Positions 19,854 through 38,595 of a stretch of DNA of 64,000 nucleotides are shown piece after piece. Made by a program: the position numbers and the translations under genes. The notes under the pieces were generated by a model. The model was not told the origin of the DNA. It ran no database searches and saw nothing but the letters and a program-made list of their open reading frames with translations. Each line of letters begins with the position of its first letter. Position 1 is the first letter of the stretch. The DNA is from Chloroflexota bacterium. Its GTDB lineage: Bacteria > Chloroflexota > Anaerolineae > UBA4142. The stretch lies in NCBI GenBank assembly GCA_016223105.1, contig JACRPR010000040.1:18940-82939 (forward strand), written 5' to 3'.

Positions 19854-20432
19854 ATGTTGGATTCGTCTCTCCGCGATTGGGTCAACCTTCAATCGCATCA
19901 AAACATCAACACCTGTTTCACCTGCGCGAAATGCACGGCGGGCTGTCCGGTCGCGTTCGCGATGGAGTTTGGTCCGCATCGCATTTTGCAAATGGTGCGC
20001 TTTGGAATGAACGACGCCGCGCTCGCGAGCCGCGATATTTGGTTGTGCGCGGGATGCGAAACCTGCGCGACGCGTTGCCCGAACGATGTGGACGTTGCCG
20101 CGCTGATGGACGCGTTGCGCCAAATTTCGCTTGCCAAAAAATCGCGCAACCCCGCGCGCGATATCGCCGACTTTCATCGCGCGTACTTGCTCCTCATCAA
20201 ATTGTTCGGACGCATGCACGAGGCATCGCTGATGATTCTGGTCAAACTGATCACGCGTGATCTGCTCGCGGATATGGGCGCGGGTGTGCAGTTGGTTTTG
20301 AAAGGAAAAATTCCGATTGTGCCGGAACGCATTCGTGGGACAGGTGAAGTGAGCAGAATGTTGAACGCGGAAAAACGTAATTCGCGCGAAGCGTTCGTAA
20401 TTCGTAATTCGCAATTCGGAAATCAAAAATGA
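19854..20432 (+). CDS. hdrC: Heterodisulfide reductase subunit C (HdrC-like)
   Basis: RBS GGAGGA. Two ferredoxin-like motifs, 'CFTCAKCTAGCP' and 'CAGCETCATRCP'. Its stop overlaps the hdrB start (ATGA). Confidence 0.85.
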   Translation: MLDSSLRDWVNLQSHQNINTCFTCAKCTAGCPVAFAMEFGPHRILQMVRFGMNDAALASRDIWLCAGCETCATRCPNDVDVAALMDALRQISLAKKSRNPARDIADFHRAYLLLIKLFGRMHEASLMILVKLITRDLLADMGAGVQLVLKGKIPIVPERIRGTGEVSRMLNAEKRNSREAFVIRNSQFGNQK

Positions 20433-21241
20433 AATTCGCCTATTACCCAGGATGCAGTTTGCACGCGACCGGGTTGGAGTACGACCAATCCACCCGCGCC
20501 GCGTTGTGCGCGCTCGATGTCGAACTCGACGAACTGCGCGATTGGAATTGTTGCGGCGCGTCGTCCGCACACGCACTCGATGCGAACGCCGCGATCCTTC
20601 TCGCCGCGCGCAATCTCGCGCTCGCGCAACGCGCGCATCGCGATGTGATCGCGCCGTGCGCCGCGTGTTTCAATCGGCTCAAAGTTGCGGAGCATATTCT
20701 CAAAACCGATTCGACGCGCCGCGTCGAAATCGAACGCGCGCTCGATTTTTATTACGCCGACGCGACCCAGATTCTCAATCCGATTGACCTGGTCGTGAAT
20801 CACATCGGTTTGCCACGCGTGCGCGCCGCCGTGAAAAATCCGCTCACCGATTTGCGCGTCGTCCCACACATCACGCAATTCGACGATCCCGAACATCCGC
20901 GCGCGCTCGATCAACTCCTCTCCGCCATTGGCGCACAGCCATGCGAGTGGGCGGATGCGACGCATTGTTGCGGCGGCTCGCTCTCGCTGACGCGCGCGAA
21001 CATCGTCATCAAACTCGTGGATGACCTGGTCGCGCACGCGCGCGATGTCAACGCGCAAGCCATCGTTACCGCGTGCCCGCTTTGCCAAATCAATCTCGAA
21101 ATGCGTCAGACGCGCGCGGACAAATTGCCGATTGTGTATTTCACCGAATTGATGGGACTCGCGTTCGGATTAAAAGAATCGCGCAAGTGGTGGGGCAAGC
21201 ATCTCATCAATCCGCGCGAATTGGTGAGCCGGTATCAGTGA
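20429..21241 (+). CDS. hdrB: Heterodisulfide reductase subunit B (HdrB-like, two CCG domains)
   Basis: 'YYPGCSL...NCCGAS...APCAACF' and '...HCCGGSL...TACPLCQ' are duplicated CCG (Cys-rich) motifs. Confidence 0.85.
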   Translation: MKFAYYPGCSLHATGLEYDQSTRAALCALDVELDELRDWNCCGASSAHALDANAAILLAARNLALAQRAHRDVIAPCAACFNRLKVAEHILKTDSTRRVEIERALDFYYADATQILNPIDLVVNHIGLPRVRAAVKNPLTDLRVVPHITQFDDPEHPRALDQLLSAIGAQPCEWADATHCCGGSLSLTRANIVIKLVDDLVAHARDVNAQAIVTACPLCQINLEMRQTRADKLPIVYFTELMGLAFGLKESRKWWGKHLINPRELVSRYQ

Positions 21242-21271
21242 AACGTAAAACGTGATGCGTGATGGGAGCAT

Positions 21272-21354
21272 GTCATTGCGAGGAGCGATTTTTGCGACGA
21301 AGCAATCTCCGAACGGTGCGTGGGGATTGCTTCGCACAGAACGCTCGCAATGAC
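21272..21354. repeat. Family-A palindromic element, copy 3
   Basis: GTCATTGCGAGGAGCGATTTTTGCGACGAAGCAATCTCC...GGGGATTGCTTCGCACAGAACGCTCGCAATGAC, between hdrB and the next gene. Confidence 0.85.
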
Positions 21355-21366
21355 AAGAGTCGCGAT

Positions 21367-22758
21367 ATGTTAAACGATTCAACTAACCAACTATCCAACC
21401 ATCCAACTAACCAACCAACCGGCGCAGTCCTGGTTGTCGGCGCGGGGATTGGCGGAATGCAAGCATCGCTCGATCTCGCGGACGCCGGTTTTAAGGTGTA
21501 CTTGCTCGACCGCGCGCCCGCGATTGGCGGACGAATGGCGCAACTCGACAAAACATTTCCGACGAACGATTGCGCGATGTGCATCATGTCGCCGAAACTC
21601 GTCGAGACCGGACGCCATCTCAACATCGAAATCATCACGACCGCCGATTTGGAAAAAGTTGAAGGCGAGCCGGGAAATTTCACCGCGACGATTCGCGAGC
21701 ATCCGCGTTACGTTGATCTTTCGAAATGCACCGGGTGCGGCGATTGCGCGGCGAAATGTCCGATCACTTTGCCGGATGAATTTAATACCGGGATGAGCGC
21801 GCGCAAAGCGATTTACAAATTGTATCCGCAAGCGATTCCGAACGCGTTCGCGATTGAAAAGCGCGGCATCGCGCCGTGTCGCGACGCGTGCCCCGCGCAT
21901 CAACGCGCGATGGGTTATATCGCGCTGATTCGCGAACGCCGGTTCGCCGACGCGTATCGCGTGATCAAAGAAGACAATCCGTTTCCCTCGATTTGCGGAC
22001 GCGTCTGCATCGCGAAATGCGAGACCGCGTGCAATCGCGCGCAGTTCGATGCGCCGGTTGCGATTCGCGATTTGAAACGTTTCGTCGCGGATTGGGCGTG
22101 GAATCAGTCAGCAGTCAACAGTCAACAGTCAACAGTCGTCAGTCAACAGTCGTCAGTCAATTCCCAATTACCACTTACCAATTACCAGGTCGCAATCATT
22201 GGCTCCGGTCCCGCCGGGATGACCTGCGCGGCAGACCTGGTGCGACAAGGTTATGGCGTTACCGTGTTCGAAGCGTTGCCGGTCGCGGGCGGAATGATGC
22301 GCGTCGGCGTGCCGAATTTTCGCTTGCCGTACGACCGCGTGCAAAAAGAGATTGACGACATTCTCGCGCTTGGCGTCGAACTAAAATTGAACACGCGCAT
22401 TGATGATGTCGAAAAACTTTTCGTGGATGGATTCGATGCGGTCTTCTTCGCGGCTGGTTCACATCGCGCGCGCAAACTGCCGATCCCCAACGCGAATCAT
22501 CCCGACGCGATCCTCTCGTTGGATTTGTTGCGCGATACGAGTTTGGGAATTTCAGAATCAGGGAATCCCCAATCTGAAATCTGCAATTTGAAATCTAAAG
22601 TTGCGAATCGCCGCGTCCTGGTTTTGGGCGGCGGCGCAGTCGCGGTGGACGCGGCGACGACCGCGCGACGACTCGGCGCGTTCAGCGTTGCGATGGCTTG
22701 CCTCGACGCGCGCGCGACAATGCCCGCGACAAAAGAGGATTTGGCGCAAGCTGACTAA
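21367..22758 (+). CDS. HdrL-like giant fusion, N-terminal part (QmoA-like HdrA FAD domain, ferredoxin, NfnB/GltD Fe-S and first Rossmann domain)
   Basis: ATG at 21367 lies after the repeat. 'VVGAGIGGMQASLDLADAGFKVYLLDR...GGRMAQLDKTFPTNDCAMCIMSPK' is HdrA-type. 'CTGCGDCAAKCP'. 'CRDACPA...NPFPSICGRVCIAKCETACNR' and 'VAIIGSGPAGMTCAADL' are GltD/NfnB-type. It ends at an in-frame TAA (22756-22758) in the middle of a conserved domain. Confidence 0.8.
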   Translation: MLNDSTNQLSNHPTNQPTGAVLVVGAGIGGMQASLDLADAGFKVYLLDRAPAIGGRMAQLDKTFPTNDCAMCIMSPKLVETGRHLNIEIITTADLEKVEGEPGNFTATIREHPRYVDLSKCTGCGDCAAKCPITLPDEFNTGMSARKAIYKLYPQAIPNAFAIEKRGIAPCRDACPAHQRAMGYIALIRERRFADAYRVIKEDNPFPSICGRVCIAKCETACNRAQFDAPVAIRDLKRFVADWAWNQSAVNSQQSTVVSQQSSVNSQLPLTNYQVAIIGSGPAGMTCAADLVRQGYGVTVFEALPVAGGMMRVGVPNFRLPYDRVQKEIDDILALGVELKLNTRIDDVEKLFVDGFDAVFFAAGSHRARKLPIPNANHPDAILSLDLLRDTSLGISESGNPQSEICNLKSKVANRRVLVLGGGAVAVDAATTARRLGAFSVAMACLDARATMPATKEDLAQAD

Positions 22759-23013
22759 GAGGGCATTGCGATTTATCCGTCGCGATCGTTCAAACGCGTC
22801 GTCGTCGAAAATGGAAAAATCACCGGCGTCGAATGTGTCAACGTCAAATCGTTCGCGTTCGATAAAGATGGACGACTTGCGCTCGAAACACATCCGAACA
22901 CCGAACACCTTCTCGAATGTGACACGGTAATTTTCGCGATTGGGCAAGGTCCCGATCTCGCGCCGATTCAAAATTCGCAAGGCGCGCAACAAACGCCGCG
23001 GCGCACGCTCGCG

Positions 23014-25968
23014 GTGAATCCCGAAACGCTTGCAACCGGGCGACCTGGTTTGTTCGCCGGCGGCGACGCGGTTACCGGCGTTGGTTTCATCATTGACGCG
23101 ATTGCCGCCGGACATCGCGCCGCAAATTCGATTCAGACATATCTCAGTCGTCGGTCAACAGTCAACAGTCAACAGTTACCAATTACCAATTCAGTCGTGA
23201 AATTATCGCGCGACGAAATCACCGCGCGCGTTGAAACCGGCAAGGTAACAAAACGCGAGCGTGTCGAACGGAAATGGATTGATGCCGGGACGCGCGTGCA
23301 CTCGTTCGAAGAATTTGCATTGCCGATGTCGGAAGAGGAAGCGGTCGCGGAGGCGCAACGCTGTCTCGAATGTGGTGTGTGTTCCGAGTGCCTCGAATGT
23401 GTGTACGCGTGTCGCGCTGGCGCGGTCAATCACGCGGCGATTGAAGCGACGCGTGAACTGCAAGTCGGCGCGGTGATTCTCACACCTGGTGTCGAGCCGA
23501 TTGATTTACGTGCCCCTTCGACTTCGCTCAGGGTGGGCTATCGTCCCGAGTACGGTTACGGGCGTTACCCGAACGTCGTTACGTCGCTCGAGTTCGAACG
23601 CTTTTTGTCCGCAACCGGTCCGACCCAGGGTGTTGTCGCGCGACCGAGCGATGGCGCGCATCCGAAAAAAATCGCGTGGATTCAATGCGTTGGTTCGCGC
23701 GATTGCGCGCGCGACCAGGGCTATTGCTCTTCGATTTGTTGTATGTACGCGACGAAAGAAGCGGTCATTGCGCGCGAGCATAGCGCGGAGATCGCGCCGA
23801 CAATTTTTTATCTCGACATTCGCGCGTACGGCAAAGAGTTCGACCGCTACATCGAGCGCGCGAAAAACCAGGGCGTCCGTTACATTCGCTCGATGGTCAG
23901 CGCGATTGAACCTGGTGCGAACGGAAATTTGAATGTGCGTTACGCGCTCGACGATGGACCCAAGACCGAAGAATTTGAAATGGTCGTGTTGTCGGTCGGC
24001 GTGAAACCGAGCGCGGAAACGCGCGCGCTCGCGCAACGCCTCGGCATCGCGTTGAATGAGTACGGTTTCACGGAATCCATTTCGTTCGCGCCAACCGCGA
24101 CCTCGCGACCTGGTATTTTTGTCGCGGGCACATTCCGCGAACCGAAAGATATTCCAGAGACGGTCATCGAAGCATCCGCCGCCGCCGCGTGCGCGTCGCA
24201 ATTGCTCGCGTCCGCGCGTGGAACGCTCGCGCGCGTCAAAACGTATCCGCCCGAACGCGACGTGGCGGAAGAAGAACCGCGCGTCGGCGTGTTCGTGTGT
24301 CATTGCGGCATCAACATTGGCGGAGTCGTGCGCGTGCCGGAAGTCGTCGAGTTTGCAAAGACGTTGCCGGGTGTCGTGTACGCGGAACACAATCTCTACA
24401 CCTGTTCGCAAGATACGCAAGCGCGTATCAAGGCGCGCATCGAAGAAAATCATCTGAATCGCGTCGTCGTCGCGAGTTGCACGCCGCGCACGCACGAGCC
24501 CTTGTTCCAGGATACATTGCGCGAAGCGGGATTGAACCCTCACCTGTTCGAACTCGCGAATATCCGCGAGCAAGACGCGTGGGTGCATCGCGGCGATCGC
24601 GACGCGGCGACGCGCAAAGCGCAAGACCTGGTCGCGATGATGGTCGCGCGCGCGCAACACGACTCGCCGTTGTATCGCCTCGTGTTCGACATCAATCCGC
24701 GCGCGCTCGTGATCGGCGGCGGATTTGCCGGAATGACTGCGGCGTTGACGATTGCGGAACAGGGGCACGATGTTTTCCTGGTCGAGCGCGACGCCGAGCT
24801 GGGCGGACACGCGCGGCACATTCAGTTTGCAGTGAACGGTGAACAGTCAACAGTCAACTGTGTGGATGTGCAAGCAATGTTGCACGACACGATTGCGCGT
24901 GTGATGGAACATCCGCGCGTGCACGTTTACACGCGCGCAGAAATCAATGATGTTGCCGGTTATGTCGGACGATTTGTTTCGCGGATTCACCTCGCGGATG
25001 AAGACGCGAACATCGCGCTCGATCACGGCGCAATCGTCGTCGCGACCGGCGCGCGCGCCGCGACGCCGCGCGAGTATTTGTATGGCATGGACAACCGCGT
25101 GATCACTCAGCAAGATTTGGAATCGCTGATCATCAATCGAAAATCAGAAATCGAAAATCAAAAATCAATCGTGATGATTCAATGCGTCGGCTCACGCGAC
25201 GAATCGCGCGCGTACTGCTCGCGCATTTGCTGTCAACAGGCAATCAAGAACGCGCTCAAGTTGAAGGAACTGAATCCGCAAACGCAAATCGTCGTGTTGT
25301 ATCGCGACCTGCGCGCGTACGGCTTCAAAGAAGATTTGTATCGCCGCGCGCGCGAGCAAGGTGTTTTGTTTCTGCCGTACGAATTGGATGCCAAGCCGAA
25401 CGTCGCAATCGCGAATGACAAACTGCGCGTTACTGCGCGCGCCGCGTTCGCTCCGAATGGAAAAATCGAACTCGAACCCGACCTGGTTGTGTTGAGCGCG
25501 GGCATCGAGCCGAACGATAACGCGCCGCTCGCGCAACTCTTAAAAGTGCCGCTGACCCAGGATGGATTTTTTCTCGAAGCGCACGCGAAACTGCGCCCGC
25601 TCGATTTCGCCGCCGATGGAATTTTTCTCGCCGGACTCGCGCACTCGCCGCGCGCGCTCGACGAATCGATCGCGCAAGCGCAAGGCGCGGCGATTCGCGC
25701 CGTCGCGCTCTTGTCACAAAAACAACGCGAAGCCGTCGCGACCGTCGCGACCGTGAACGAACGCCTGTGCGCGGGATGCGGCTTGTGTGTCGAGATGTGT
25801 CCGTACGGCGCGCGCGCGCTCGACGCGGACGCGCACATCGCGCAAGTGAACGCGGCGCTGTGCCAGGGTTGCGGCGCGTGCGTAACCGCGTGTCCGAACG
25901 GCGCATCGCAACAACGCGCGTTCGAAATGCCGCAAGTGTTTGCGATGATTGAAAACGCAGTCGCGTAA
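23014..25968 (+). CDS. HdrL-like giant fusion, C-terminal part (end of NfnB/GltD domain, HdrA middle region, complete second HdrA)
   Basis: Same frame as 21367..22758. Homology is continuous from codon 22759 ('EGIAIYP...DTVIFAIGQ...GLFAGGDAVTG'). No ATG/GTG/TTG occurs in frame before the GTG at 23014. 'QCVGSRD...YCSSICCMY', 'VFVCHCGINI', 'ASCTPRTHE', and a terminal 2x[4Fe-4S] ('CAGCGLCVEMCP', 'CQGCGACVTACP'). Confidence 0.8.
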   Translation: MNPETLATGRPGLFAGGDAVTGVGFIIDAIAAGHRAANSIQTYLSRRSTVNSQQLPITNSVVKLSRDEITARVETGKVTKRERVERKWIDAGTRVHSFEEFALPMSEEEAVAEAQRCLECGVCSECLECVYACRAGAVNHAAIEATRELQVGAVILTPGVEPIDLRAPSTSLRVGYRPEYGYGRYPNVVTSLEFERFLSATGPTQGVVARPSDGAHPKKIAWIQCVGSRDCARDQGYCSSICCMYATKEAVIAREHSAEIAPTIFYLDIRAYGKEFDRYIERAKNQGVRYIRSMVSAIEPGANGNLNVRYALDDGPKTEEFEMVVLSVGVKPSAETRALAQRLGIALNEYGFTESISFAPTATSRPGIFVAGTFREPKDIPETVIEASAAAACASQLLASARGTLARVKTYPPERDVAEEEPRVGVFVCHCGINIGGVVRVPEVVEFAKTLPGVVYAEHNLYTCSQDTQARIKARIEENHLNRVVVASCTPRTHEPLFQDTLREAGLNPHLFELANIREQDAWVHRGDRDAATRKAQDLVAMMVARAQHDSPLYRLVFDINPRALVIGGGFAGMTAALTIAEQGHDVFLVERDAELGGHARHIQFAVNGEQSTVNCVDVQAMLHDTIARVMEHPRVHVYTRAEINDVAGYVGRFVSRIHLADEDANIALDHGAIVVATGARAATPREYLYGMDNRVITQQDLESLIINRKSEIENQKSIVMIQCVGSRDESRAYCSRICCQQAIKNALKLKELNPQTQIVVLYRDLRAYGFKEDLYRRAREQGVLFLPYELDAKPNVAIANDKLRVTARAAFAPNGKIELEPDLVVLSAGIEPNDNAPLAQLLKVPLTQDGFFLEAHAKLRPLDFAADGIFLAGLAHSPRALDESIAQAQGAAIRAVALLSQKQREAVATVATVNERLCAGCGLCVEMCPYGARALDADAHIAQVNAALCQGCGACVTACPNGASQQRAFEMPQVFAMIENAVA

Positions 25969-25988
25969 AACGTAAAATGGAGTACGCA

Positions 25989-26405: not shown

Positions 26406-26483
26406 TTGGTTAGTTGCCTAGTCGCGATTGATGGCAACTATCAAACTATCAAACCATACAACTATTCAACTAGGAAACAAACG

Positions 26484-26981: not shown

Positions 26982-27017
26982 AAGAATCGTAAATCGAAAA
27001 TCGAAAATGGAGTTGTG

Positions 27018-31173: not shown

Positions 31174-31217
31174 ATGATTTTCGATTTTTGATTTTAGATT
31201 TGACGATTGTGCGAGAC

Positions 31218-31278: not shown

Positions 31279-31338
31279 AATATTCCCGAACAGTGTGATC
31301 GTTAAATCGAAAATCAAAAATCGGCAATTGGATGAACT

Positions 31339-32682
31339 ATGCCAAACAGCGCACTCGTAATCGGCGGCGGTATCGCCGGAATTCAAACCGCGCTCGATAT
31401 CGCGGATGCCGGGTTTCATGTGTATCTCGTCGAAAAAGAACCGAGCGTCGGCGGGCGAATGGCGCAACTCGACAAAACATTTCCGACGCTCGATTGTTCC
31501 GCGTGCATCCTCACGCCGAAAATGGTGGATGTCGCGCGCCATCCCAACATCGAACTCATTACGTACTCTGAAGTTTGCAATATCACAAATGGCGCAAGTG
31601 ACTTTTACGCGACAATCAAAAAGAAACCGCGTTACGTTGACACCAACAAATGTACCGGTTGCGGCAGTTGTGCGGAGGCGTGTCGTTTGAAGGGACGCGT
31701 GACCGATACGTTCAACGCGGGGATGGGCAAACGTTCCGCGATCTATGTTCCGTTTCCGCAAGCCGTTCCGCTCAAGTACACCGTGGATCCGACGCAATGC
31801 GTTTATCTCACGCGCGGCGTGTGCGGCAAAACGTTTTTGTGCAAAGACGCGTGCAAAGCGGACGCGATTGATTTCACGCAAAAAGAAGAAATCGTCGAGT
31901 TGAATGTCGGCGCGATTGTCGTCGCGACCGGGTTCGATCCGTTCGACGCCGCACTCAAACCGGAACTGGGTTACGGAATTTATCCGAACGTCATCACGTC
32001 TCTGCAATTTGAACGCTTGTCGTCCGCGTCTGGTCCGACTGCCGGAAAAATTTTGTTGAACGGCAAAGAACCGCGCGAGGTCGTGTTCGTGCAATGCGTC
32101 GGCTCGCGCGATGTGACGACCGGCAATCTGTATTGCTCGCGCGTTTGCTGTATGATTACCGCGAAGCACGCGCACCTGGTCAAAGATAAAATTCATGACG
32201 CGAACGTTACGATTTTTTACGCGGACATGCGCGCGTTCGGCAAAGGGTTTGAAGAATTTTACGACCGCGTGCGCGCGGAAGGCGTCAACTATCGGCGCGG
32301 ATACGTTTCCGAAATTTACGCCGCCGGCGGGCAGACGCCCAAACGCGATGGCAAACTTGTCGTGCGTTCCGAAGACACGCTCATCGGCAAGCCCATCGAA
32401 ACGACTGCCGATCTGGTCGTGTTGAGCGTCGGTCTCGTGCCGCGCGTCGAAACGAACACGCTCGCGCAGATTTTACAGCTCACAAATTCTAGCGACGGTT
32501 TTCTGGCGGAGGCGCATCCGAAAATGTTGCCGGTGGACACAAAAATAAACGGTGTTTACCTCGCGGGCGTCGCGCAAGGGCCGAAAGATATTCCCGACGC
32601 GGTCGCGCACGCGAAGGCGGCGGCGAGCGCGGCGATTGTGCGCTTACGCAGTCGTCAGTCGTCAGTCGCCAGTCAACAGTGA
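31339..32682 (+). CDS. QmoA-like short HdrA (FAD domain only)
   Basis: 'VIGGGIAGIQTALDIADAGFHVYLVEKEPSVGGRMAQLDKTFPTLDCSACILTPKM', 'CTGCGSCAEAC' and 'VQCVGSRD...YCSRVCCM'. It lacks the N-terminal CHCG domain and the C-terminal ferredoxin. Confidence 0.85.
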   Translation: MPNSALVIGGGIAGIQTALDIADAGFHVYLVEKEPSVGGRMAQLDKTFPTLDCSACILTPKMVDVARHPNIELITYSEVCNITNGASDFYATIKKKPRYVDTNKCTGCGSCAEACRLKGRVTDTFNAGMGKRSAIYVPFPQAVPLKYTVDPTQCVYLTRGVCGKTFLCKDACKADAIDFTQKEEIVELNVGAIVVATGFDPFDAALKPELGYGIYPNVITSLQFERLSSASGPTAGKILLNGKEPREVVFVQCVGSRDVTTGNLYCSRVCCMITAKHAHLVKDKIHDANVTIFYADMRAFGKGFEEFYDRVRAEGVNYRRGYVSEIYAAGGQTPKRDGKLVVRSEDTLIGKPIETTADLVVLSVGLVPRVETNTLAQILQLTNSSDGFLAEAHPKMLPVDTKINGVYLAGVAQGPKDIPDAVAHAKAAASAAIVRLRSRQSSVASQQ

Positions 32683-32716
32683 ACAGTGAACTGTTGACTG
32701 ACTACTTGGAGTTAAA

Positions 32717-33835
32717 ATGTTCGACACGGAATCACTCGTCCAACAATACGAACTGACCGCATGTATTCAATGCGGCAAATGCACCGGCGGTTGTCCGATC
32801 GCGCTCAAGAGCGCGTTGAATCCGCGCGCACTCGTCTATCAAATGTTACGCGGCGAAGAATTTGAACTCGTGTCGCGCGGCGAGTTGTGGGATTGCACGA
32901 CGTGCGCGACGTGCGGCTTGCGTTGTCCCAAAGGCGTCAAAGCGGTTGACCTGATTATCGCGTTGCGCGCGCAGTGGATCGAAAGCGGAAAAATTCCGAC
33001 GACGCTTCGCGCACCGCTCACCGCGACGTTGAACCAGGGCAACCCGCTCGTCTTGCCACGCGAAGATCGCTCGCTGTGGGCGGATGGCTTGAACGTCAAA
33101 AATGTCGCGGATGGCGCGGGGATCGCAATGTTCACTTGTTGCGAAAACGCGTACGACCCGCGCGTGCAAGCGATGCCGCGCGCGCTCGTGAATTTGTTAC
33201 GCGCGGCGAACCAGGATTTCGGTACGCTCGGTCTCGACGAGCAATGTTGCGGCAGTGAAGTGCGGCGCATCGGCGAAGCCGGTTTGTTCGAATACTTGCG
33301 CGACGACAACCTCGAAAAATTTCGCGCCGCGCGCGTATCGAAAATGGTAACAACTTCGCCGCATTGTTTCAACGTTTTCAAAAACGAGTACGGCAAACAC
33401 GCAATCCCGGTTGAACATTACACGCAAACGCTCGCGCATTTGATCGCGGACGGCGCGCTGAAATTTTCAAAAAAGTTTCAAGCGACGATCACGTACCAAG
33501 ACCCGTGCTTTCTCGGCAAGCAAAATGGAATTTACGATGAGCCGCGCGCGATTTTGAAAGCGATCCCCGGCGCAAAGTTTGTCGAGATGGATCGCTCGCG
33601 CGAACGAAGCGTATGTTGCGAGGGCGGCGGCGGGCGAATGTGGCTCGAAGGCACGAATAGCCAAGTCCGACTCGCGAACGATCGCATCGCGCACGCGCTC
33701 GACACCGGCGCGAACATTCTCGCGACCGCGTGCCCGTTCTGTTTTCTTACCTTGAGCGACGCGGTGATCGCGACCGGCAACGAAGAAAAAATCAAGGTGA
33801 TGGATATTCTCCAAATTGCGAATGCGGCAATCTGA
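32717..33835 (+). CDS. HdrD-like Fe-S protein (fused HdrC-like ferredoxin plus two CCG domains)
   Basis: 'CIQCGKCTGGCP', 'CTTCATCGLRCP', then 'FTCCENAY...CCGSE' and 'DPCFLG...VCCEGGGG...TACPFC'. Confidence 0.8.
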   Translation: MFDTESLVQQYELTACIQCGKCTGGCPIALKSALNPRALVYQMLRGEEFELVSRGELWDCTTCATCGLRCPKGVKAVDLIIALRAQWIESGKIPTTLRAPLTATLNQGNPLVLPREDRSLWADGLNVKNVADGAGIAMFTCCENAYDPRVQAMPRALVNLLRAANQDFGTLGLDEQCCGSEVRRIGEAGLFEYLRDDNLEKFRAARVSKMVTTSPHCFNVFKNEYGKHAIPVEHYTQTLAHLIADGALKFSKKFQATITYQDPCFLGKQNGIYDEPRAILKAIPGAKFVEMDRSRERSVCCEGGGGRMWLEGTNSQVRLANDRIAHALDTGANILATACPFCFLTLSDAVIATGNEEKIKVMDILQIANAAI

Positions 33836-33983: not shown

Positions 33984-35915
33984 ATGAAATCCCAAATCGG
34001 CGTTTACATTTGTCATTGCGGTTTGAATATCGCGAACACGGTGGACGTGGAGCAGGTGCGCGAGTTTGCGCGCATCTTGCCGAACGTCGCGATCGCGCGC
34101 AACTATACGTATATGTGCTCCGACCCAGGTCAAGCGTTGATCACGAACGACATTCGCGACCTGGGATTGACGCACGTCGTCGTCGCGTCGTGTTCGCCGC
34201 GGATGCACGAGCCAACTTTTCGCGCGACGATCCATAAAGCCGGGTTGAATCCGTACGTGTTAGAGATGGCGAACATTCGCGAGCAATGTTCCTGGGTTCA
34301 TTCGGATCGCACGCTCGCGACACTCAAGGCGATGGATTTGATCGCGTCGGCGGTTGCGAAGGTCGCTCTGCTCGTGCCATTGCAAGAGCGCGAGGTCAAG
34401 GTCACTCAATCTGCGCTCGTGATCGGCGGCGGTATCGCGGGAATGACTGCCACGCTCGATATTGCGAACGCCGGCTTCCAGGTTTGTCTCGTCGAAAAGC
34501 AAACACACCTCGGCGGACGCGTCGCGCAACTCGACACAACATTCCCAACCCAGGAACGCGTCGCCGATTTGCTCGCGCCCGTGTTGCGCGCGATAACGAC
34601 GCATCCCAACATTCGCGTCATTACGAACGCGGACGTTGAAAAAGTGGATGGGTTCATCGGCAATTTTCGCGCGACGATTCGCGCGCGCCCGACGTTCGTT
34701 GACGCGATGAAATGCGACGCGTGCGGGAAATGCGTGGACGCGTGCCCGGTGAATGTGCCGGACGCGTTCGACGCGAATCTCACGACGCGCCGCGCGATCT
34801 ATCGCGCGCCGGATGCGCGATTCGTGATCGACGCGCGCGCGTGTTCGTTTGTGCAGGATCGCGTCTGCCGATCCGATCCACGTTGCGCGGCGGTGTGTGA
34901 TCGCAACGCGATTGATTTTTCGCAAACCGAAAATCTGGTCGAGATCAACATCGGCGCGATCATCGTCGCGACCGGTGCGGCAACTTTCGACGCGACGAAA
35001 AAACCGGAACTGGGATTCGGCACGTACTCGAACGTGATCACCTCGTTGCAATTCGAGCGGCTTGCCGCGCGCCAGGAATTGCAATCGGTGAAGGATGTCG
35101 TGTTCGTCTCCTGCGTCGGCTCGCGCGATGCGACGACCGGCAATACCTATTGCTCGCGCGTCTGTTGTATGGTCAACGCGAAACAAGCGCGGCGCATCCA
35201 GGAAAAATTTCCCGACGCGCGCGTAACTGTGTTTTACGCGGACGTGCGCGCGTTCGGCAAAGGGCACGAAGAATTTTACGACGCGGTTCGCAAAACCGGC
35301 GTGCGCTATCGGCGCGGGTACGTGTCCGAAATTTTCGCCGCAGGCGGGCAGACGCCCAAACGCGATCAAAAATTGATCGTGCGCGCGGAAGACACGCTGA
35401 TTCAAAAACCAATCGAAGTTTCTGCCGACCTGGTTGTGCTGGGAATCGGAATGACGCCGCGCGCGGAGACGAACGAAATCGCGAATGTGCTGGGCTTGCC
35501 GCGTTCGGGCGATGGATTTTTGTTGGAGATTCATCCGAAACTGCGCCCGGTCGAAACCGCGGTGGATGGAGTTTTTCTCGCGGGCGCGTGCCAGGGACCA
35601 AAAGACATCGTGGACACGATCGCGCAAGCGCGCGCGGCGGCATCGTCCGCGTTCGCGTCGTTGTGTCGCGGGCAAGTGAAAATCGAATCCGCGACCGCGC
35701 GCGTGGATGAAGAGGTGTGCGCGGGTTGCGGCTTGTGCGTCGCGACGTGTCCGTACGGCGCGCCCGCATTGATCGCGCGCACGGGCACTGCGCGCGTAAA
35801 CCAGGTCTTGTGTAAAGGATGCGGCGCGTGCGAAGCCGCGTGTCCATCGAAAGCGATCCAGGTGATGCAATGCACACCGCGCCAAGTGCTTGCCCAGATC
35901 GCGGTGTTGGCGTAG
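33984..35915 (+). CDS. hdrA: Full-length HdrA-like flavoprotein (N-terminal CHCG domain, FAD domain, C-terminal 2x[4Fe-4S])
   Basis: 'GVYICHCGLNI', 'ASCSPRMHE', 'LVIGGGIAGMTATLDIANAG', 'SCVGSRD...YCSRVCCM', 'CAGCGLCVATCP' and 'CKGCGACEAACP'. The usual 'DKTFPTxDCxxC' site reads 'DTTFPTQERVADLL'. Confidence 0.85.
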   Translation: MKSQIGVYICHCGLNIANTVDVEQVREFARILPNVAIARNYTYMCSDPGQALITNDIRDLGLTHVVVASCSPRMHEPTFRATIHKAGLNPYVLEMANIREQCSWVHSDRTLATLKAMDLIASAVAKVALLVPLQEREVKVTQSALVIGGGIAGMTATLDIANAGFQVCLVEKQTHLGGRVAQLDTTFPTQERVADLLAPVLRAITTHPNIRVITNADVEKVDGFIGNFRATIRARPTFVDAMKCDACGKCVDACPVNVPDAFDANLTTRRAIYRAPDARFVIDARACSFVQDRVCRSDPRCAAVCDRNAIDFSQTENLVEINIGAIIVATGAATFDATKKPELGFGTYSNVITSLQFERLAARQELQSVKDVVFVSCVGSRDATTGNTYCSRVCCMVNAKQARRIQEKFPDARVTVFYADVRAFGKGHEEFYDAVRKTGVRYRRGYVSEIFAAGGQTPKRDQKLIVRAEDTLIQKPIEVSADLVVLGIGMTPRAETNEIANVLGLPRSGDGFLLEIHPKLRPVETAVDGVFLAGACQGPKDIVDTIAQARAAASSAFASLCRGQVKIESATARVDEEVCAGCGLCVATCPYGAPALIARTGTARVNQVLCKGCGACEAACPSKAIQVMQCTPRQVLAQIAVLA

Positions 35916-35952: not shown

Positions 35953-36171
35953 ATGGTTTGCCTCGAATTAACGGTGCGCGAAGCGGAATTGATGCATCGC
36001 ATTGTGAACAACCATCTCGCGGAAGTGCGCGCGGAAATTACCGCCGGCAAAATTGTGGATCTCGATGATCTGCTCACGTTTGAAGAGACCGCGCTCGCAC
36101 ACATTTTGGATGTGCTTTCCAAACAAGGCACGGGTTGTTGCGCCGAGCAGTACGGCGGCTATCCCGAATGA
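35953..36171 (+). CDS. Small hypothetical protein (72 aa), tandem paralog 1
   Basis: ATG at 35953 with RBS CAGGAG. Helical. 'LELTVREAELMHRIVNNHLAEVRAEI'. Confidence 0.55.
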   Translation: MVCLELTVREAELMHRIVNNHLAEVRAEITAGKIVDLDDLLTFEETALAHILDVLSKQGTGCCAEQYGGYPE

Positions 36172-36184: not shown

Positions 36185-36400
36185 ATGTTCAATCTCGAAT
36201 TGAGTCCGCGCCAAGCCGCGGTGCTTCACAAAATTCTGCAATCGTATCATTCCGATTTGCAATTGGAAATTTCGGATATGGACATTGAGGGTTTGAGTGA
36301 AGTGCTCATCGCCGAAGAAAACGCGGTCAATCAAATTCTCGCAGAGTTGGACGCGGCAGGTTTCGCGTTGACGATGGAAACCGGCGAATACGCGGGTTGA
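36185..36400 (+). CDS. Small hypothetical protein (71 aa), tandem paralog 2
   Basis: ATG at 36185 with RBS AAGGA. 'LELSPRQAAVLHKILQSYHSDLQLEI' aligns with the preceding ORF. Confidence 0.55.
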   Translation: MFNLELSPRQAAVLHKILQSYHSDLQLEISDMDIEGLSEVLIAEENAVNQILAELDAAGFALTMETGEYAG

Positions 36401-36406
36401 ATCGCG

Positions 36407-36865
36407 ATGGAAAATTCCGCGCGCAAAATTCTCGCGGTGCTCGGCGGACTCGGCACGCTTGTTCACGCGGAGCACACCGCCGAACTCGCGTGCCATTTGT
36501 GCGAAGGGCGCAGAGCCGACCTGGTTTTGGGTTACCCGATTATCGTCCCGCTCACCGCCGCGCTCGATGCGCGCTTGCCGACCCAGGAACGCGCGGCGCA
36601 GGACGCGATTGAATGTGGCTTGCGCGCGGTCGCGCAACGCAATTGTCGCGCGACAATCCATGTCGTGCGTCATCGCGATCCGGCGGAGGCGATCCTCGAA
36701 CTCGCGCGCGATGAACGCGCGGATGTCATTGTGCTGGGCATTCACGTCAATCCGAACGTCCCGCGCGATTATGATCGCGCTGAAACCGCCGAGGACGAAA
36801 TTTTGCGCCGCGCCGAATGTGAAGTGATTATAGACCGCGAACCGTTGTTAATTTCAGATGTATGA
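36407..36865 (+). CDS. Universal stress protein (UspA family)
   Basis: 152 aa. 'ILAV...', 'AILELARDERADVIVLG' and a C-terminal 'ILRRAECEVI' Usp-like pattern. Confidence 0.7.
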   Translation: MENSARKILAVLGGLGTLVHAEHTAELACHLCEGRRADLVLGYPIIVPLTAALDARLPTQERAAQDAIECGLRAVAQRNCRATIHVVRHRDPAEAILELARDERADVIVLGIHVNPNVPRDYDRAETAEDEILRRAECEVIIDREPLLISDV

Positions 36866-36887
36866 TTTCAGATTCCAAATTTTTACC

Positions 36888-36961
36888 GTCATTGCGAGCG
36901 AAGCGAAGCAATCCCCAATTTGCTACGCGGAGATTGCTTCGCATAAACCGCTCGCAATGAC
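36888..36961. repeat. Family-A palindromic element, copy 4
   Basis: GTCATTGCGAGCGAAGCGAAGCAATCCCCAA...GGAGATTGCTTCGCATAAACCGCTCGCAATGAC. Confidence 0.9.
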
Positions 36962-36987
36962 ACACTGAAATCTGAAATGGAGTTGCA

Positions 36988-38595
36988 ATGTACACACCAG
37001 AAATGCGCGAATCCATCGCGAAGGTGGAAGCGAGCCGCGCGCGCCGAATGAGCGAACGGCATCCCAGTCTCGCGCCGGACGAACGCCAGGACATTCTCAA
37101 AAAATTTCATCCCGATTTTATCGCGGACGCATTTCGCGCGCTCCGCGTCGGCGCGAATCGCGGCGACAAAACGCCGAACGAACTCGCGGACGTGCTCGAA
37201 GCGCGTTCGCCGATTGACTCGCCCGCGTTCGACTTGAATCGCGTGGACATCGAAACCGATGTGTTGATTATCGGCGGCGGCGGCGCAGGCGCGTGCGCGG
37301 CTCTGCTCGCGCAACAAGCCGGTGCGCGCGTTCTGCTCGCGACCAAATTGCGTTTCGGCGACGCGAACACGATGATGGCGCAAGGCGGCATCCAAGCCGC
37401 CGACAAGGAAAACGATTCGCCCGCGCAACATTATCTCGATGTGATCGGCGGCGGCGGATTCGCGAACGATCCCGACCTGGTGGATGCGCTCGTGAGCGAC
37501 GCGCCGATGGTGATCGCGTGGCTCGAATCGCTTGGCGTGATGTTCGAGAAAACGCGCGACGGCGAAATGGTAACGATTCACGGCGGCGGCACATCGCGCA
37601 AACGGATGCACTTTAGCCGCGATTATTCCGGCGCGGAAATTATGCGCGTCCTGCGCGATGAAGTCCGCAATCGCGATTCGATTCGCGTAATTGAATTTGC
37701 GCCGGCAATCGAACTCGTACTCAACTCGCGCGGACAGTGCGCGGGTGCGATTTTGCAAAACATCGAAACCGGCGAGCATTTGCTCGCGCGCGCGAAAACG
37801 ACAATCATCGCGACCGGCGGATCGGGGCGTTTGCATTATCAAAATTTTCCAACGACGAATCATTACGGCGCGACCGCCGATGGACTCGTGCTGGCGTATC
37901 GCGCCGGCGCGAAACTCGCGTTCATTGACACGATGCAATATCATCCGACCGGCGCGGCGTATCCCGAACAAATCCTGGGACAACTCGTTACCGAAAAAGT
38001 GCGCGGACTCGGCGCGCAAGTGTGCAATGCGGATGGCGAACAATTTGTCTATCCGCTCGAAACGCGCGATGTCGAATCCGCCGCATTCATTCGCGAATGT
38101 CGCGAACGCGGGCGCGGCATCAAAACGCCGACCGGACAATTCGGTGTGTGGCTCGACGCGCCGTTGATTGATCGGTTGCGCGGCGTGGGCACCATCGCGA
38201 AAGAATTACCGGCAATGGTGCGCCAATACAAACGTTTTGGAATTGACCTGGTCAAAGAACCGATCCTGGTTTATCCGACTCTGCATTATCAAAACGGCGG
38301 CGTCGCGATCAAACCGGATGGCGCGACGAGCGTGCCGAATTTATTTGTCGCCGGCGAAGCATCGGGCGGCGTGCATGGGCGCAATCGTTTGATGGGCAAC
38401 AGTTTGCTCGATGTGTGTGTGTTCGGTCGCCGCGCCGGGATCGCGGCGGCGGAACGCGCGCGTGAATACCAGGATGGCGCCGCGCTCACGTTCGATCATC
38501 TCGCGCGCTGGGAACGCGCGCGCGCGGACGCCGGTTTGAACGATGGCATCGTCGCGCCGATCCTGTTGCCGGATTACACGCGGCACGGGCGCTGA
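36988..38595 (+). CDS. FAD-dependent succinate dehydrogenase/fumarate reductase flavoprotein-like oxidoreductase (TfrA/NadB-like)
   Basis: 'DVLIIGGGGAGACAAL', 'ANTMMAQGGIQAA', 'HPTG' and 'GLFVAGEASGGVHGRNRLMGNSLLD' are SdhA/FrdA-family motifs. RBS GGAG. Confidence 0.8.
   Translation: MYTPEMRESIAKVEASRARRMSERHPSLAPDERQDILKKFHPDFIADAFRALRVGANRGDKTPNELADVLEARSPIDSPAFDLNRVDIETDVLIIGGGGAGACAALLAQQAGARVLLATKLRFGDANTMMAQGGIQAADKENDSPAQHYLDVIGGGGFANDPDLVDALVSDAPMVIAWLESLGVMFEKTRDGEMVTIHGGGTSRKRMHFSRDYSGAEIMRVLRDEVRNRDSIRVIEFAPAIELVLNSRGQCAGAILQNIETGEHLLARAKTTIIATGGSGRLHYQNFPTTNHYGATADGLVLAYRAGAKLAFIDTMQYHPTGAAYPEQILGQLVTEKVRGLGAQVCNADGEQFVYPLETRDVESAAFIRECRERGRGIKTPTGQFGVWLDAPLIDRLRGVGTIAKELPAMVRQYKRFGIDLVKEPILVYPTLHYQNGGVAIKPDGATSVPNLFVAGEASGGVHGRNRLMGNSLLDVCVFGRRAGIAAAERAREYQDGAALTFDHLARWERARADAGLNDGIVAPILLPDYTRHGR

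Follow-up and report, generated by a model that had tools for sequence, protein, structure and literature searches.

Which electron donors and acceptors are connected by an Hdr-type gene cluster found in uncultured anaerobic Chloroflexota is the question raised by the locus considered here, located in a window of 64,000 nucleotides of a Chloroflexota genome. The cluster occupies positions 19854-38595 of the plus strand as an operon-like array of co-directional genes for Fe-S and flavin proteins, with repeats filling its intergenic gaps as had been noticed in the preliminary description. Upon recount, it comprises 16 genes (17 ORFs), all on the plus strand, instead of the 19 reported initially, and its character as a cluster of redox cofactor proteins was confirmed except for three genes, which encode two tiny proteins and a Usp. 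The motif-based domain calls were all backed by Pfam, NCBIfam or PDB matches in a profile-HMM check (the HdrA2 model, for example, scored 560-744 bits), the NCBIfam matches all falling below the equivalog cut-offs.

A synteny check showed that the order of the cluster genes is kept in relatives represented by metagenome-assembled genomes of Chloroflexota, and for the wider comparison 83 related FdhB/FrhB-like loci were used, which together with the window yielded 1114 ORFs. The flanks are as described earlier, a Sec-FDH-like gene on one side and a V/A-type ATPase operon, beginning 20 nt past the last cluster gene, on the other. The FDH is of the molybdopterin type with a TAT signal and a TGA(Sec) codon, it is encoded on the strand opposite to the cluster, and a two-component system (17843-19608) lies in between. 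The functional links suggested for formate and these neighbors found no support: the FDH is periplasmic, divergent, served by Fer4_11 and NrfD subunits of its own and not found beside the cluster in relatives, and the ATPase adjoins the cluster in only one close relative. Neither flank is a conserved partner.

The division of the cluster into two sets was borne out and proved sharper than claimed, each set containing a complementary HdrA pair: one HdrA lacks the N-terminal domain and carries the Cys194/Cys197 motif, and the other has the N-terminal CHCG domain and lacks the motif. These are two heterodimer-type pairs, one of them fused with an NfnB-like NAD(P)H module, and they reproduce the heterodimer logic of the HdrA of ANME, in which HdrA heterodimers, HdrA-NfnB fusions and FrhB-only clusters were described (PMC9012536).

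Set 1 opens with an HdrC-like 2x[4Fe-4S] protein of 192 aa (19854..20432; Pfam Fer4_17 3e-10, Fer4_8; NCBIfam HdrC 9e-18, below the cut-off), the C-terminus of which extends into a heptamer tract (20394-20418), and an HdrB-like protein of 270 aa with two CCG domains (20429..21241; Pfam CCG 5e-22 in two stretches; NCBIfam HdrB 8e-36, SdhE 4e-35). Alignment of the hdrB-like gene with homologs showed that, in this sequence only, 30 bp have been lost in frame between 20863 and 20864. The residues thereby removed, 'SYYGCLLVRP', contain a Cys that 98% of 59 homologs share; judging from the sequence, the HdrB-like protein of this genome is devoid of one cluster ligand. The fused double HdrA follows (21367..25968, alternative start GTG 21259; delineated by Pfam, NCBIfam and a motif map). 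Its unit 1 has no N-domain, bears the Cys197 motif and accommodates within the inserted-ferredoxin domain an NfnB/GltD-like module of ~430 aa (Fer4_20 and Pyr_redox_2; PDB 9bov_A, 9n5u_A, 4ylf_B and 5jca_L at 1e-63 to 1e-70), and unit 2 is full length. The "giant polypeptide" of the preliminary description stands as to its domain make-up, but not as a single open frame in this genome, where an in-frame TAA at 22756-22758 splits the gene inside the GltD-like domain; the position is occupied by Gln in the five closest relatives, and intact ORFs of ~1480-1540 aa exist in relatives. Set 1 (hdrB-like and fused hdrA) may be inactivated in this genome. The set closes with an MvhD/ElpC-like [2Fe-2S] connector of 142 aa (25977..26405; Pfam FlpD 7e-54), which keeps five Cys in 98-100% of 63 homologs and accompanies an FdhB/FrhB-like gene in 80 of the 83 loci.

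Set 2 begins with two FdhB/ElpB-like paralogs, of 362 aa (28876..29964) and 372 aa (30055..31173), both matching Pfam FrhB_FdhB_C above the cut-off (7e-8 and 1e-6, respectively), with no N-terminal FrhB domain detected in the Pfam search. The first is restricted to the clade possessing the ACAD-like gene discussed below; by sequence it matches PDB 9t1s_M, 7bkb_E and 8rvu_E, and its AF2 model (pLDDT 79) is nearest in Foldseek to the FdhB of Fdh-Hdr-Fmd (7bkb_E, TM 0.71) and the ElpB of Elp-Hdr (8rvu_E, TM 0.70). The second is the ortholog of the widespread copy and keeps the CPxCxCxxC motif, sharing 36% identity with the first and 43-48% with its counterpart in other Chloroflexota loci. Downstream are a "QmoA-like" HdrA core of 447 aa (31339..32682; NCBIfam HdrA2 560 bits at profile positions 140-560), which lacks the N-terminal domain as well as the C-terminal ferredoxin domain and shows the Cys194/197 motif as 'FPTLDCSAC', an HdrD/TfrB-C-like protein of 372 aa with 2x[4Fe-4S] and two CCG domains (32717..33835; Pfam CCG 3e-27, Fer4_8; NCBIfam TfrB 3e-47, positions 126-487), and a full-length HdrA of 643 aa (33984..35915; PDB 5odc_A 9e-198) with the inserted and C-terminal ferredoxin domains. 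In the alignment the latter reads 'TFPTQERVADLL' opposite 'TFPTNDCSIC' of M. wolfeii.

With regard to the terminal acceptor, an acyl-CoA substrate had been considered on account of an acyl-CoA-dehydrogenase-fold protein of 350 aa (27755..28807; Pfam ACAD N- and C-terminal domains; best PDB matches Bcd 5ol2_C at 1e-26, 4l1f and CarC 6fah). Such an acceptor is doubtful, because the YEG motif with the canonical catalytic Glu is missing in all 10 orthologs and the gene occurs in only ~12 of the 83 loci. A 2x[4Fe-4S] ferredoxin gene (26484..26969, 161 aa from ATG 26484, the ORF opening with TTG 26406; Pfam Fer4_10, Fer4_7) accompanies it in ~10 loci, and the ACAD-like/ferredoxin/second FdhB-like unit is best explained as a clade-specific add-on.

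The conserved terminal enzyme is a non-covalent-FAD SdhA/TfrA-like flavoprotein with an SdhB-like Fe-S partner. The latter, of 227 aa (27015..27698; [2Fe-2S] and 2x[4Fe-4S]; Pfam Fer2, weak, and Fer4_9), weakly matches TfrB residues 19-89, and its dicluster domain is HdrC-like (weak PDB matches 7bkb_C and 8rvu_c); none of the 12 Cys of the protein varies among 39 orthologs. According to profile matches, TfrB is split here, with the SdhB-like protein corresponding to its N-terminus and HdrD to positions 126-487. The flavoprotein, of 535 aa (36988..38595; Pfam FAD_binding_2 8e-70; NCBIfam TfrA 1e-102, 344 bits against a cut-off of 718), has PDB matches exclusively among Sdh/Frd/NadB. Since HPT, TE..R, RD, HYxNGG and NRLxGNSL are invariant in 30 orthologs and the covalent-FAD His is replaced by Asn in all 30, it is predicted to combine non-covalent FAD with a complete dicarboxylate active site. 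In the H44 mutants of E. coli FrdA, loss of this His is reported to abolish succinate oxidation and to preserve fumarate reduction; both the invariant residues and the Asn thus speak for the fumarate-reducing direction.

Across the 83 loci, the HdrA–MvhD–FdhB-like module has a single recurrent partner of non-Hdr type, the SdhB-like/SdhA-like pair: the SdhB-like gene occurs in 39-40 and the SdhA-like gene in 30-33 loci (18 and 17, respectively, of the 33 loci that extend 8 kb or more to either side), usually separated by 27-90 nt, and no other non-Hdr family appears in more than 11 loci. The pair is attached to the module in Anaerolineae, Dehalococcoidia, one Thermodesulfobacteriota and one Methanocellales genome. 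This conserved partner points to fumarate; the absence of SdhAB from about half of the FdhB-like/MvhD/HdrA loci suggests that the module itself is generic.

The locus is best explained as encoding, in anaerobic Chloroflexota, an Hdr-type system with several flavins, built either as one complex or as two sub-complexes coupled to each other. Tentatively, and at somewhat less than even probability, we regard it as a soluble fumarate reductase that works without quinones and by flavin-based electron bifurcation, with NAD(P)H and/or F420H2 as the donors. Solubility is suggested by the finding that no hydrophobic 19-mer in the cluster proteins reaches transmembrane-like values. Electron pairs would be taken from NAD(P)H at the NfnB-like insert, from a hydride donor such as F420H2 at the FdhB-like FAD with onward transfer through MvhD, or by both routes, and would arrive at the bifurcating FAD of HdrA. 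From there the high-potential electron would pass via HdrC/HdrD-type diclusters and the SdhB-like protein to the SdhA-like FAD, where fumarate would be converted to succinate (E0' about +30 mV), and the low-potential electron via the HdrA ferredoxin domains to ferredoxin, so that two NAD(P)H (or F420H2), fumarate and oxidized ferredoxin would give succinate and reduced ferredoxin. The subunit contacts assumed in this scheme have gene order as their sole basis. If the scheme is correct, the enzyme would likely serve energy conservation or a reductive TCA branch.

The building blocks have mostly published precedents. The donor arm (FdhB/ElpB-like and MvhD) is Elp-like: in Elp-Hdr, F420H2 is oxidized at ElpB and electrons pass via an MvhD homologue to the HdrA FAD (PMC12350162). 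tfrAB genes interspersed with flxABCD-hdrABC in rTCA clusters (PMC6315080) are a precedent for joining Hdr with fumarate reductase. The Hdr–SdhAB pairing itself was not found in the literature searched, nor was any paper describing the cluster.

The bifurcating fumarate reductase leaves the CCG domains unexplained if no thiol takes part, and the stop within the NfnB-like domain and the missing HdrB ligand in this genome also speak against it. A thiol would have a role if an HdrABC-type bifurcating enzyme reduced a disulfide (either a heterodisulfide of low molecular weight or the dithiol of a protein such as a lipoyl or DsrC-like carrier) and a split thiol:fumarate reductase, composed of HdrD or HdrCB with the SdhB-like and SdhA-like proteins, re-oxidized it with fumarate, a diffusible couple replacing a continuous Fe-S wire. 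Complete CCG Cys motifs are kept by most HdrB-like and HdrD-like homologs, HdrD matches TfrB at 3e-47, the HdrC-HdrB-SdhB-SdhA order in Dehalococcoidia loci is effectively a split Tfr, and a lipoate-protein ligase gene lies upstream in two relatives, L004 and L005, with L005 additionally encoding a GcvH-like protein and a further HdrD. Nevertheless, we consider this unlikely. Four loci (L074, L085, L086 and L088, in the last of which the SdhA-like gene extends beyond the locus end) have HdrA, MvhD, FdhB-like, SdhB-like and SdhA-like genes and no CCG protein, which argues for direct Fe-S wiring and not for a thiol shuttle; the LplA/GcvH adjacency is confined to two close relatives, with none within this window, where HdrB is moreover one ligand short, and Chloroflexota are not known to have a CoM or CoB context.

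It is ambiguous where along the electron path SdhB/SdhA belong, as the adjacency to the FdhB-like gene in ~10 loci would equally fit the position of FdhA/ElpA. In these loci, which include the Methanocellales genome where F420 is expected, the order MvhD-FdhB-like-SdhB-SdhA is direct, with gaps of 11-300 nt, and in solved complexes FdhB/ElpB sits between FdhA/ElpA and MvhD and binds both (PMC12350162). The pair might then form a donor arm SdhA-SdhB-FdhB-like-MvhD-HdrA acting as a confurcating sink, from reduced ferredoxin with NAD(P)H or a thiol via the HdrA FAD and MvhD to fumarate, or FdhB-like/SdhBA might be an F420H2 (or NAD(P)H):fumarate reductase merely sharing Hdr subunits. We assign this a low probability: dropping a confurcated pair to +30 mV would waste most of the free energy, SdhB is not beside the FdhB-like gene in Dehalococcoidia or in this window, and its HdrC-like dicluster domain suits the HdrC position equally. 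Quite improbable, in our opinion, is a mere redox gene island of independent, co-located and perhaps co-regulated enzymes (Hdr modules, the ACAD-like unit and SdhAB-like proteins), the last being an anabolic soluble fumarate reductase or an aspartate oxidase. It would accommodate the differing architectures of the lineages, the shifting SdhA position within the window's clade, the loci without SdhAB, the unrelated kinase, RuBisCO-like and CBS genes interposed in L085 and the uninformative promoter/terminator scans; however, the linkage of SdhB/SdhA with the module spans the four lineages named above, no further non-Hdr family recurs comparably, and aspartate oxidases work without an Fe-S partner, while the SdhB-like partner here keeps all its Cys.

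The three remaining genes are present as described before. Those of the tiny proteins, of 72 aa (35953..36171) and 71 aa (36185..36400), known from the ORF listing, are paralogs with 32% identity, the second having no Pfam or NCBIfam match, and such small genes are present in L005 and L004 too. The Usp family protein of 152 aa (36407..36865; Pfam Usp 9e-8) has counterparts encoded beside FrhB-like genes in six other loci (cluster c15).

The cluster at 19854-38595 comprises 16 genes, all on the + strand, instead of the 19 counted in the preliminary description. They encode an HdrC-like protein (19854-20432), an HdrB-like protein (20429-21241), a fused HdrA-NfnB-HdrA protein (21367/21259-25968), MvhD (25977-26405), a ferredoxin (26484-26969), an SdhB-like protein (27015-27698), an ACAD-like protein (27755-28807), the FdhB-like proteins 1 (g8, 28876-29964) and 2 (30055-31173), a short HdrA core (g10, 31339-32682), an HdrD-like protein (g11, 32717-33835), a full-length HdrA (g12, 33984-35915), two tiny proteins (35953-36171 and 36185-36400), a Usp (36407-36865) and an SdhA/TfrA-like flavoprotein (g15, 36988-38595). 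The genes from the HdrC-like one to mvhD, without their successors, form Set 1, and the FdhB-like genes with g10, g11 and g12 form Set 2. The family assignments made earlier were all backed by Pfam and NCBIfam; since every NCBIfam score lay under the respective equivalog cut-off, the proteins are to be regarded as divergent relatives, not orthologs, of the named enzymes. The g8 protein is identical to MBI5649944.1 (‘MAG: Chloroflexi bacterium’) of an uncultured Chloroflexota. Transmembrane-like segments were found in none of the cluster proteins, a promoter/terminator scan was uninformative (11 and 39 predictions, close to the 9.1 and 43.4 of shuffled sequence), and a gathering-level Rfam scan over the entire window gave no match.

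When a genome set with a single representative for each species was scanned using the FdhB-like alignment, 80 loci emerged; the genome of the window does not represent its species in this set, and the best locus shows 67% identity. Nearly all of them belong to Anaerolineae or Dehalococcoidia, the remaining ones coming from one genome each of Aerophobetes, Thermodesulfobacteriota, Deltaproteobacteria, Fibrobacterota and Methanocellales. The gene-order search called for in the preliminary description showed that the order of the window is kept in its close relatives L004, L005 and L010-L013. Among 83 related loci, for which tblastn and a de novo clustering of ORFs gave the family counts, HdrA occurs in essentially all and MvhD in 80, followed by the SdhB-like (39-40) and SdhA-like (30-33) proteins, the ACAD-like protein (about 12) and the ferredoxin (about 10), while no other non-Hdr family exceeds 11 loci. 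Where at least 8 kb was available on both sides, the SdhB-like and SdhA-like genes were present in 18/33 and 17/33 loci, respectively, and the gap between them is usually 27-90 nt. A recurrent layout in Dehalococcoidia is HdrC-HdrB-HdrA:Nfn-HdrA-HdrA (about 1000 aa)-MvhD-FdhB-HdrC-HdrB-SdhB-SdhA; one in Anaerolineae ends with HdrA (997 aa)-MvhD-FdhB-HdrA (445 aa)-HdrD-HdrA (563 aa)-SdhB-SdhA; and a minimal layout consists of HdrA-MvhD-FdhB-SdhB-SdhA. In one Anaerolineae locus (L085, 5815-9401), genes for an FGGY-type sugar kinase, a RuBisCO-like and a CBS/ACT protein were recognized by eye between fused hdrA and mvhD. An LplA gene (LplA-B_cat) lies 5' of the cluster in L004 (1-380) and L005 (1-2562), in the latter together with a GcvH-like and an extra HdrD-like gene, which recalls sHdr-LbpA systems; a lipoyl carrier as a general feature was discarded, LplA and GcvH-like genes being absent from the window and the other 80 loci.

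Structure matches of g15 are confined to Sdh, Frd and NadB. In 30 orthologs the motifs HPT, TE..R, (P/T)RD, HYxNGG and NRLxGNSL are invariant, and the covalent-FAD His of Sdh/Frd is always replaced by Asn, so that by its motifs g15 has the fumarate active site and the non-covalent FAD of a TfrA. Non-covalent FAD fits fumarate reduction, not succinate oxidation. With 344 bits on NCBIfam TfrA, where the cut-off is 718, g15 is not an equivalog. For the SdhA-like protein, over 120 clusters with identities of 70-92% are present in the database. All 12 Cys residues of the SdhB-like protein are invariant; they make up a [2Fe-2S] motif and a pair of CxxCxxCxxxCP motifs. The protein is similar to the TfrB N-terminal half, and TfrB positions 126-487 are matched by the HdrD-like g11. 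A single-chain TfrB is not found here: its parts are split between the SdhB-like (27015-27698) and HdrD-like (32717-33835) genes, 5 kb apart, and the TfrB score is 161 bits against a cut-off of 385. Judging from the sequences, the cluster holds all the putative parts of a split thiol:fumarate reductase in g15, the SdhB-like and the HdrD-like proteins. Two other assignments do not fit. A type E (CCG-anchored) SQR does not agree with the Asn found in all orthologs at the covalent-FAD His, nor was an SdhF gene or an anchor seen; the HdrB-like protein scored 122 bits on NCBIfam SdhE, against a cut-off of 500. AprAB/Qmo was rejected in view of the lack of QmoC or any other transmembrane protein in the cluster and of AprA structure matches at E < 1e-10.

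The closest structures to the ACAD-like protein are Bcd and CarC, which serve as butyryl-CoA and caffeyl-CoA dehydrogenase in bifurcating complexes with Etf, and the cluster would share with Bcd-EtfAB and CarCDE an exergonic branch in which a C=C bond is reduced. Unlike these systems, the locus has no etf (EtfAB) genes, and the catalytic ‘YEG’ Glu is missing in 10/10 orthologs of the ACAD-like protein, for which reason its being a genuine enoyl-CoA reductase is doubted; its ‘TEPxxGSD’ motif is degenerate and its middle domain shortened. Its gene never occurs without those of the ferredoxin and the SdhB-like protein and a second one of the FdhB-like type, and the protein is treated here as a clade-specific accessory.

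By sequence, the FdhB-like proteins match only the FdhB-type subunits of Hdr supercomplexes (9t1s_M, 7bkb_E and 8rvu_E). The AF2 model gave its best matches with 7bkb_E and 8rvu_E (TM 0.70-0.71 over 404-408 columns) and matched more weakly FrhB, Fsr and HCAR, the last being a non-F420 member of the fold. Pfam detected the C-terminal FrhB_FdhB domain and not the N-terminal one; the predicted fold is that of the FrhB/FdhB/ElpB family. MvhD is there as well (7e-54). Of the donor module, only the FdhB/ElpB-like half is represented; neither hydrogenase nor FdhA/ElpA genes were found in the cluster. In the Elp-Hdr complex, F420H2 is oxidised at the FAD of ElpB and the electrons pass through the MvhD homologue ElpC to HdrA's bifurcating FAD (PMC12350162). 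Given this path and the FdhB-type matches, the FdhB-like/MvhD pair of the window looks like an Elp-type arm devoid of ElpA.

The features of HdrA, namely a thioredoxin-reductase-like FAD domain, the HA4 Cys motif and ferredoxin domains, were all found, with NCBIfam HdrA2 scores of 744, 560 and 743 bits. The g12 protein aligns over its full length with residues 5-644 of M. wolfeii HdrA (5odc_A, 9e-198); it possesses the N-terminal CHCG domain and carries TFPTQERVADLL at the site of the archaeal ‘TFPTNDCSIC197’ (Cys197 in M. wolfeii numbering). Complementarily, g10 is devoid of the N-terminal and the C-terminal ferredoxin domains and keeps ‘FPTLDCSAC’. The fused HdrA repeats this complementarity within one chain, its unit 1 having Cys197 and the NfnB-like insert without the N-domain, and its unit 2 having the N-domain without Cys197. 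The NfnB-like part is a domain only (Fer4_20 with FAD- and NADPH-binding folds), similar to solved NfnB/GltD-type domains at 1e-62 to 1e-70 (4ylf_B, 2e-64; 5jca_L, 1e-62). It thus resembles NfnAB in this domain and differs from it in the subunit composition, as no NfnA partner (PyrK-like FAD/[2Fe-2S]) occurs among the annotated ORFs of the cluster. Paralogs of the two sets are only 32-55% identical, which excludes a recent duplication; as judged from this divergence, the sets are old paralogs. A 7-aa insertion, ‘AAGGQTP’, is common to g10 and g12 (32239-32418 and 35257-35436) and occurs in none of their orthologs, and the surrounding tract of ~60 nt is ~93% identical, compared with 71% overall; together these suggest gene conversion between the two paralogs in this genome. 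As for the CCG proteins (with the Cys-rich domain of HdrB/HdrD), the second motif of g11 is complete and the first incomplete, partly as assessed by eye, and the two complete motifs with 10 Cys typical of HdrB are not present in the window, the first Cys of the second motif of the HdrB-like protein being gone.

This Cys, kept in 98% of 59 homologs, was lost through a 30-bp in-frame deletion between 20863 and 20864 that removed ‘SYYGCLLVRP’ in comparison with the two nearest relatives of the hdrB-like gene; the HdrB-like proteins of the closest relatives have all 10 CCG Cys. The fused hdrA is also affected: an in-frame TAA (22756-22758) breaks the GltD/NfnB-like domain in its NAD(P)H-binding part. 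The five closest relatives have Gln at this position (‘...EQVEQEGI...’), so that a single C-to-T change accounts for the stop. The giant polypeptide envisaged earlier is borne out as an architecture, uninterrupted ORFs of 1480-1540 aa existing in ~10 other genomes, and is split in the window itself. Look-ups of the exact proteins for both fused-hdrA halves and the hdrB-like gene returned no matches, and the exact DNA pattern around the TAA was absent from the JGI metagenomes searched. As neither allele was found in an independent assembly, they reflect either real lesions by which the population has lost the function of Set 1, or mistakes in the genome assembly. The genome may thus carry a damaged copy of the cluster, which makes an intact relative, e.g., L010, a better starting point for expression.

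Flavin-based electron bifurcation is the source of low-potential ferredoxin in many anaerobes; only a handful of bifurcating enzyme classes have been proven. Considering the composition of the cluster, we propose as a plausible, if still tentative, mechanism a soluble HdrA-based bifurcation coupling hydride donors, fumarate and ferredoxin. Hydride would enter as NAD(P)H at the NfnB-like insert and/or as F420H2 or a similar donor at the FAD of the FdhB-like protein, and from there pass to MvhD; the electron pair would be bifurcated at the HdrA FAD, the high-potential electron moving over clusters of the HdrC/HdrD type and through the SdhB-like protein, then to the FAD of the SdhA-like protein and on to fumarate, and the low-potential one to ferredoxin. 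The link between the Hdr part and the reductase could instead be a thiol shuttle, in keeping with thiol:fumarate reductase; against this stand the four minimal-type loci (L074, L085, L086 and L088), which have no CCG protein within the locus, and a direct Fe-S wire is accordingly favoured. Alternatively, SdhBA might occupy the binding place of FdhA/ElpA, a possibility supported by the frequent adjacency of FdhB and SdhB genes.

With still more reserve, and rather as a possibility than as an expectation, the cluster can be seen as representing an undescribed HdrA-based bifurcating class, in which a non-covalent-FAD SdhA/SdhB-type fumarate reductase would form the exergonic branch, replacing or extending HdrBC, and would be fed by the Elp-like FdhB/MvhD arm and by the NfnB module of a self-heterodimerising fused HdrA. 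Such a class would occur widely among anaerobic Chloroflexota that have not been cultured, with sporadic transfers into other phyla, a methanogen being among the recipients, and would let these quinone-poor anaerobes use NAD(P)H or F420H2, together with fumarate, to obtain reduced ferredoxin.

The cluster shares with the complexes of the Fdh-Hdr-Fmd/Elp-Hdr type (7bkb, 8rvu) the FdhB/ElpB-like protein and the MvhD-type [2Fe-2S] connector beside HdrA, as well as HdrA, HdrB and HdrC homologs, g12 matching M. wolfeii HdrA in full length. It differs in the lack of an FdhA/ElpA homolog, in the SdhAB-like enzyme as a conserved partner, in having two unlike HdrA partners, one of them fused and with the NfnB insert, and in the bacterial host, which is not known to have a CoM-S-S-CoB pathway. 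The five-subunit NADH-fumarate reductase of Hydrogenobacter, which may include Hdr-like and GltD-like subunits, was dropped as a comparator, since an Aquifex ortholog table labels just FrdD as ‘nox’ and FrdE as ‘dmsB2’. Further precedents come from ANME-1/ANME-2 archaea, where an NfnB-like insertion lies in the inserted ferredoxin domain of HdrA (~500 aa there, ~430 aa in the window), tandem or fused HdrA proteins show complementary N-domain and Cys197, from which HdrA heterodimers were inferred by Chadwick et al. (2022), and some Hdr clusters have FdhB/FrhB without FdhA (PMC9012536). The fusion order is reversed in comparison with ANME, the Cys197 unit preceding the N-domain unit in the window; the host is bacterial; SdhA/SdhB-like and ACAD-like partners are not reported in that work, and the physiology proposed there is heterodisulfide confurcation (PMC9012536).

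With regard to the reductase, Methanothermobacter TfrAB (Heim et al., 1998, cited in PMC6315080) likewise has a soluble fumarate reductase flavoprotein with non-covalent FAD. The cluster contains the full Fe-S and CCG complement of TfrB, and the best NCBIfam models of g15 and g11 are TfrA and TfrB. In Methanothermobacter TfrB is one polypeptide, whereas in the cluster its parts are divided between the SdhB-like protein and HdrD (or HdrC and HdrB); moreover, the cluster scores do not reach half the equivalog cut-offs, g15 is extended by 88 aa at the N-terminus and short at the C-terminus, and the genes are embedded among those of HdrA, MvhD and FdhB-like proteins. In tubeworm symbionts and Thioflavicoccus, tfrAB genes are interspersed with flxABCD-hdrABC in rTCA clusters, and for the vent symbionts an NADH-driven joint reduction of fumarate and ferredoxin was proposed (PMC6315080; PMC13147460). 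There, too, a soluble AB-type fumarate reductase is genomically associated with a bifurcating Hdr module, but the donor is FlxABCD instead of an NfnB insert or an FdhB-like/MvhD arm, and the context is that of rTCA genes in Gammaproteobacteria.

No account of an HdrA-MvhD-FdhB-SdhAB cluster was found in the full-text literature searched, which settles for this literature the concern that it had been described before; a prior description elsewhere is possible. Neither fumarate nor Sdh is mentioned in a survey of HdrA neighbourhoods in archaea (PMC12054007), a preprint lists, without analysing it, succinate dehydrogenase among the STRING partners of bacterial HdrA, and papers on Chloroflexi report HdrABC-MvhD-MetVF and HdrBCA-MvhD-FdhBA, not the present cluster (PMC5736913). 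All the parts are of known kinds, and for several aspects of the design there are precedents in archaea; what is new is that an SdhAB-type enzyme is coupled in a conserved manner, and broadly within Chloroflexota. If the proposal is true, an Hdr-type complex with fumarate as the high-potential acceptor would be a new entry among the bifurcating classes, would explain fumarate reduction without a membrane quinol enzyme in abundant sediment and groundwater Chloroflexota, and would open the Hdr–Tfr coupling that was proposed in vent symbionts to testing in a far larger group. In addition, the locus clearly exemplifies, in a bacterium, the asymmetric HdrA design (heterodimeric or fused) and an Elp-like donor arm, which have so far been discussed for archaea.

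The flanking genes, which the preliminary description had tied to the cluster, are apparently not its partners. On the 5' side, a HisKA_3/NarL two-component pair (17843-19608, +) is preceded by genes on the - strand (12464-17602) for a periplasmic, selenocysteine formate-dehydrogenase-N-like molybdopterin oxidoreductase with a TAT signal and its partner subunits, a Fer4_11 protein followed by an NrfD-type membrane protein. Its in-frame TGA (17033-17035) falls in the FdnG-type motif ‘HQARI-U-HSATV’; no SECIS-type Rfam match was obtained for this gene. As the enzyme is TAT-exported, has its own Fer4_11/NrfD partners, is divergent, and its adjacency to the cluster is not conserved, the formate link was dropped. 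On the other side, a complete V/A-type ATPase operon (38616-48103) begins 20 nt past the stop of the SdhA-like gene, with G-like, I, likely c, E, C, F, A, B and D subunits, the likely c subunit (40870-41178) having no Pfam match; among the relatives, an ATPase adjoins the cluster in L004 only.

Nearly all the intergenic spacers contain paired reverse-complementary arrays of short tandem repeats with a period of 7, sometimes 8 or 9, and a different unit in each spacer (29962-30048, 26376-26476, 31174-31323 and 43540-43610; further 9588-9628, 11141-11196, 42085-42139, 45533-45566/45784-45822 and 47204-47319). The pairs fold into long hairpins of -29 to -55 kcal/mol, with z-scores of -4 to -6.1 against shuffles and no Rfam family match; they could be intercistronic processing/stability elements or a mobile repeat class. 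Similar heptamer tracts inside ORFs (21380-21420, 22105-22187, 22570-22596, 23154-23191, 24830-24862, 25135-25168 and 32649-32691; at homologous positions of L005, 3296-3331, 3772-3796 and 4334-4371) are read as low-complexity linkers, e.g., SAVNSQQSTVVSQQSSVNSQ and ‘RKSEIENQKS’. The unit being 7 nt, a change in copy number alters the reading frame, and the L005 fused hdrA shifts frame exactly in the tract matching 22570-22596 of the window.

Downstream, a low-GC stretch (48701-55101, -; 46% at 48-50 kb against ~57% elsewhere) encodes an Eco57I/MmeI-type restriction-modification fusion protein and an SNF2/PLD-domain helicase and is probably an acquired defence island. It is followed by tandem repeats within ORFs, with periods of 18/36/54 nt (56468-56599) and 42/30/60 nt (59392-59840) and TRF scores of up to 445, the hosts being the repetitive-protein ORFs 55483-56763 (+) and 58869-60038 (-). 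Near the other end of the window, a gene for an ankyrin-repeat protein (4501-5634, -; Ank_2, 3e-33) adjoins those for a MarC membrane protein and a Glu/Leu/Phe/Val dehydrogenase, and a cytochrome c gene is located at 1186-1791.
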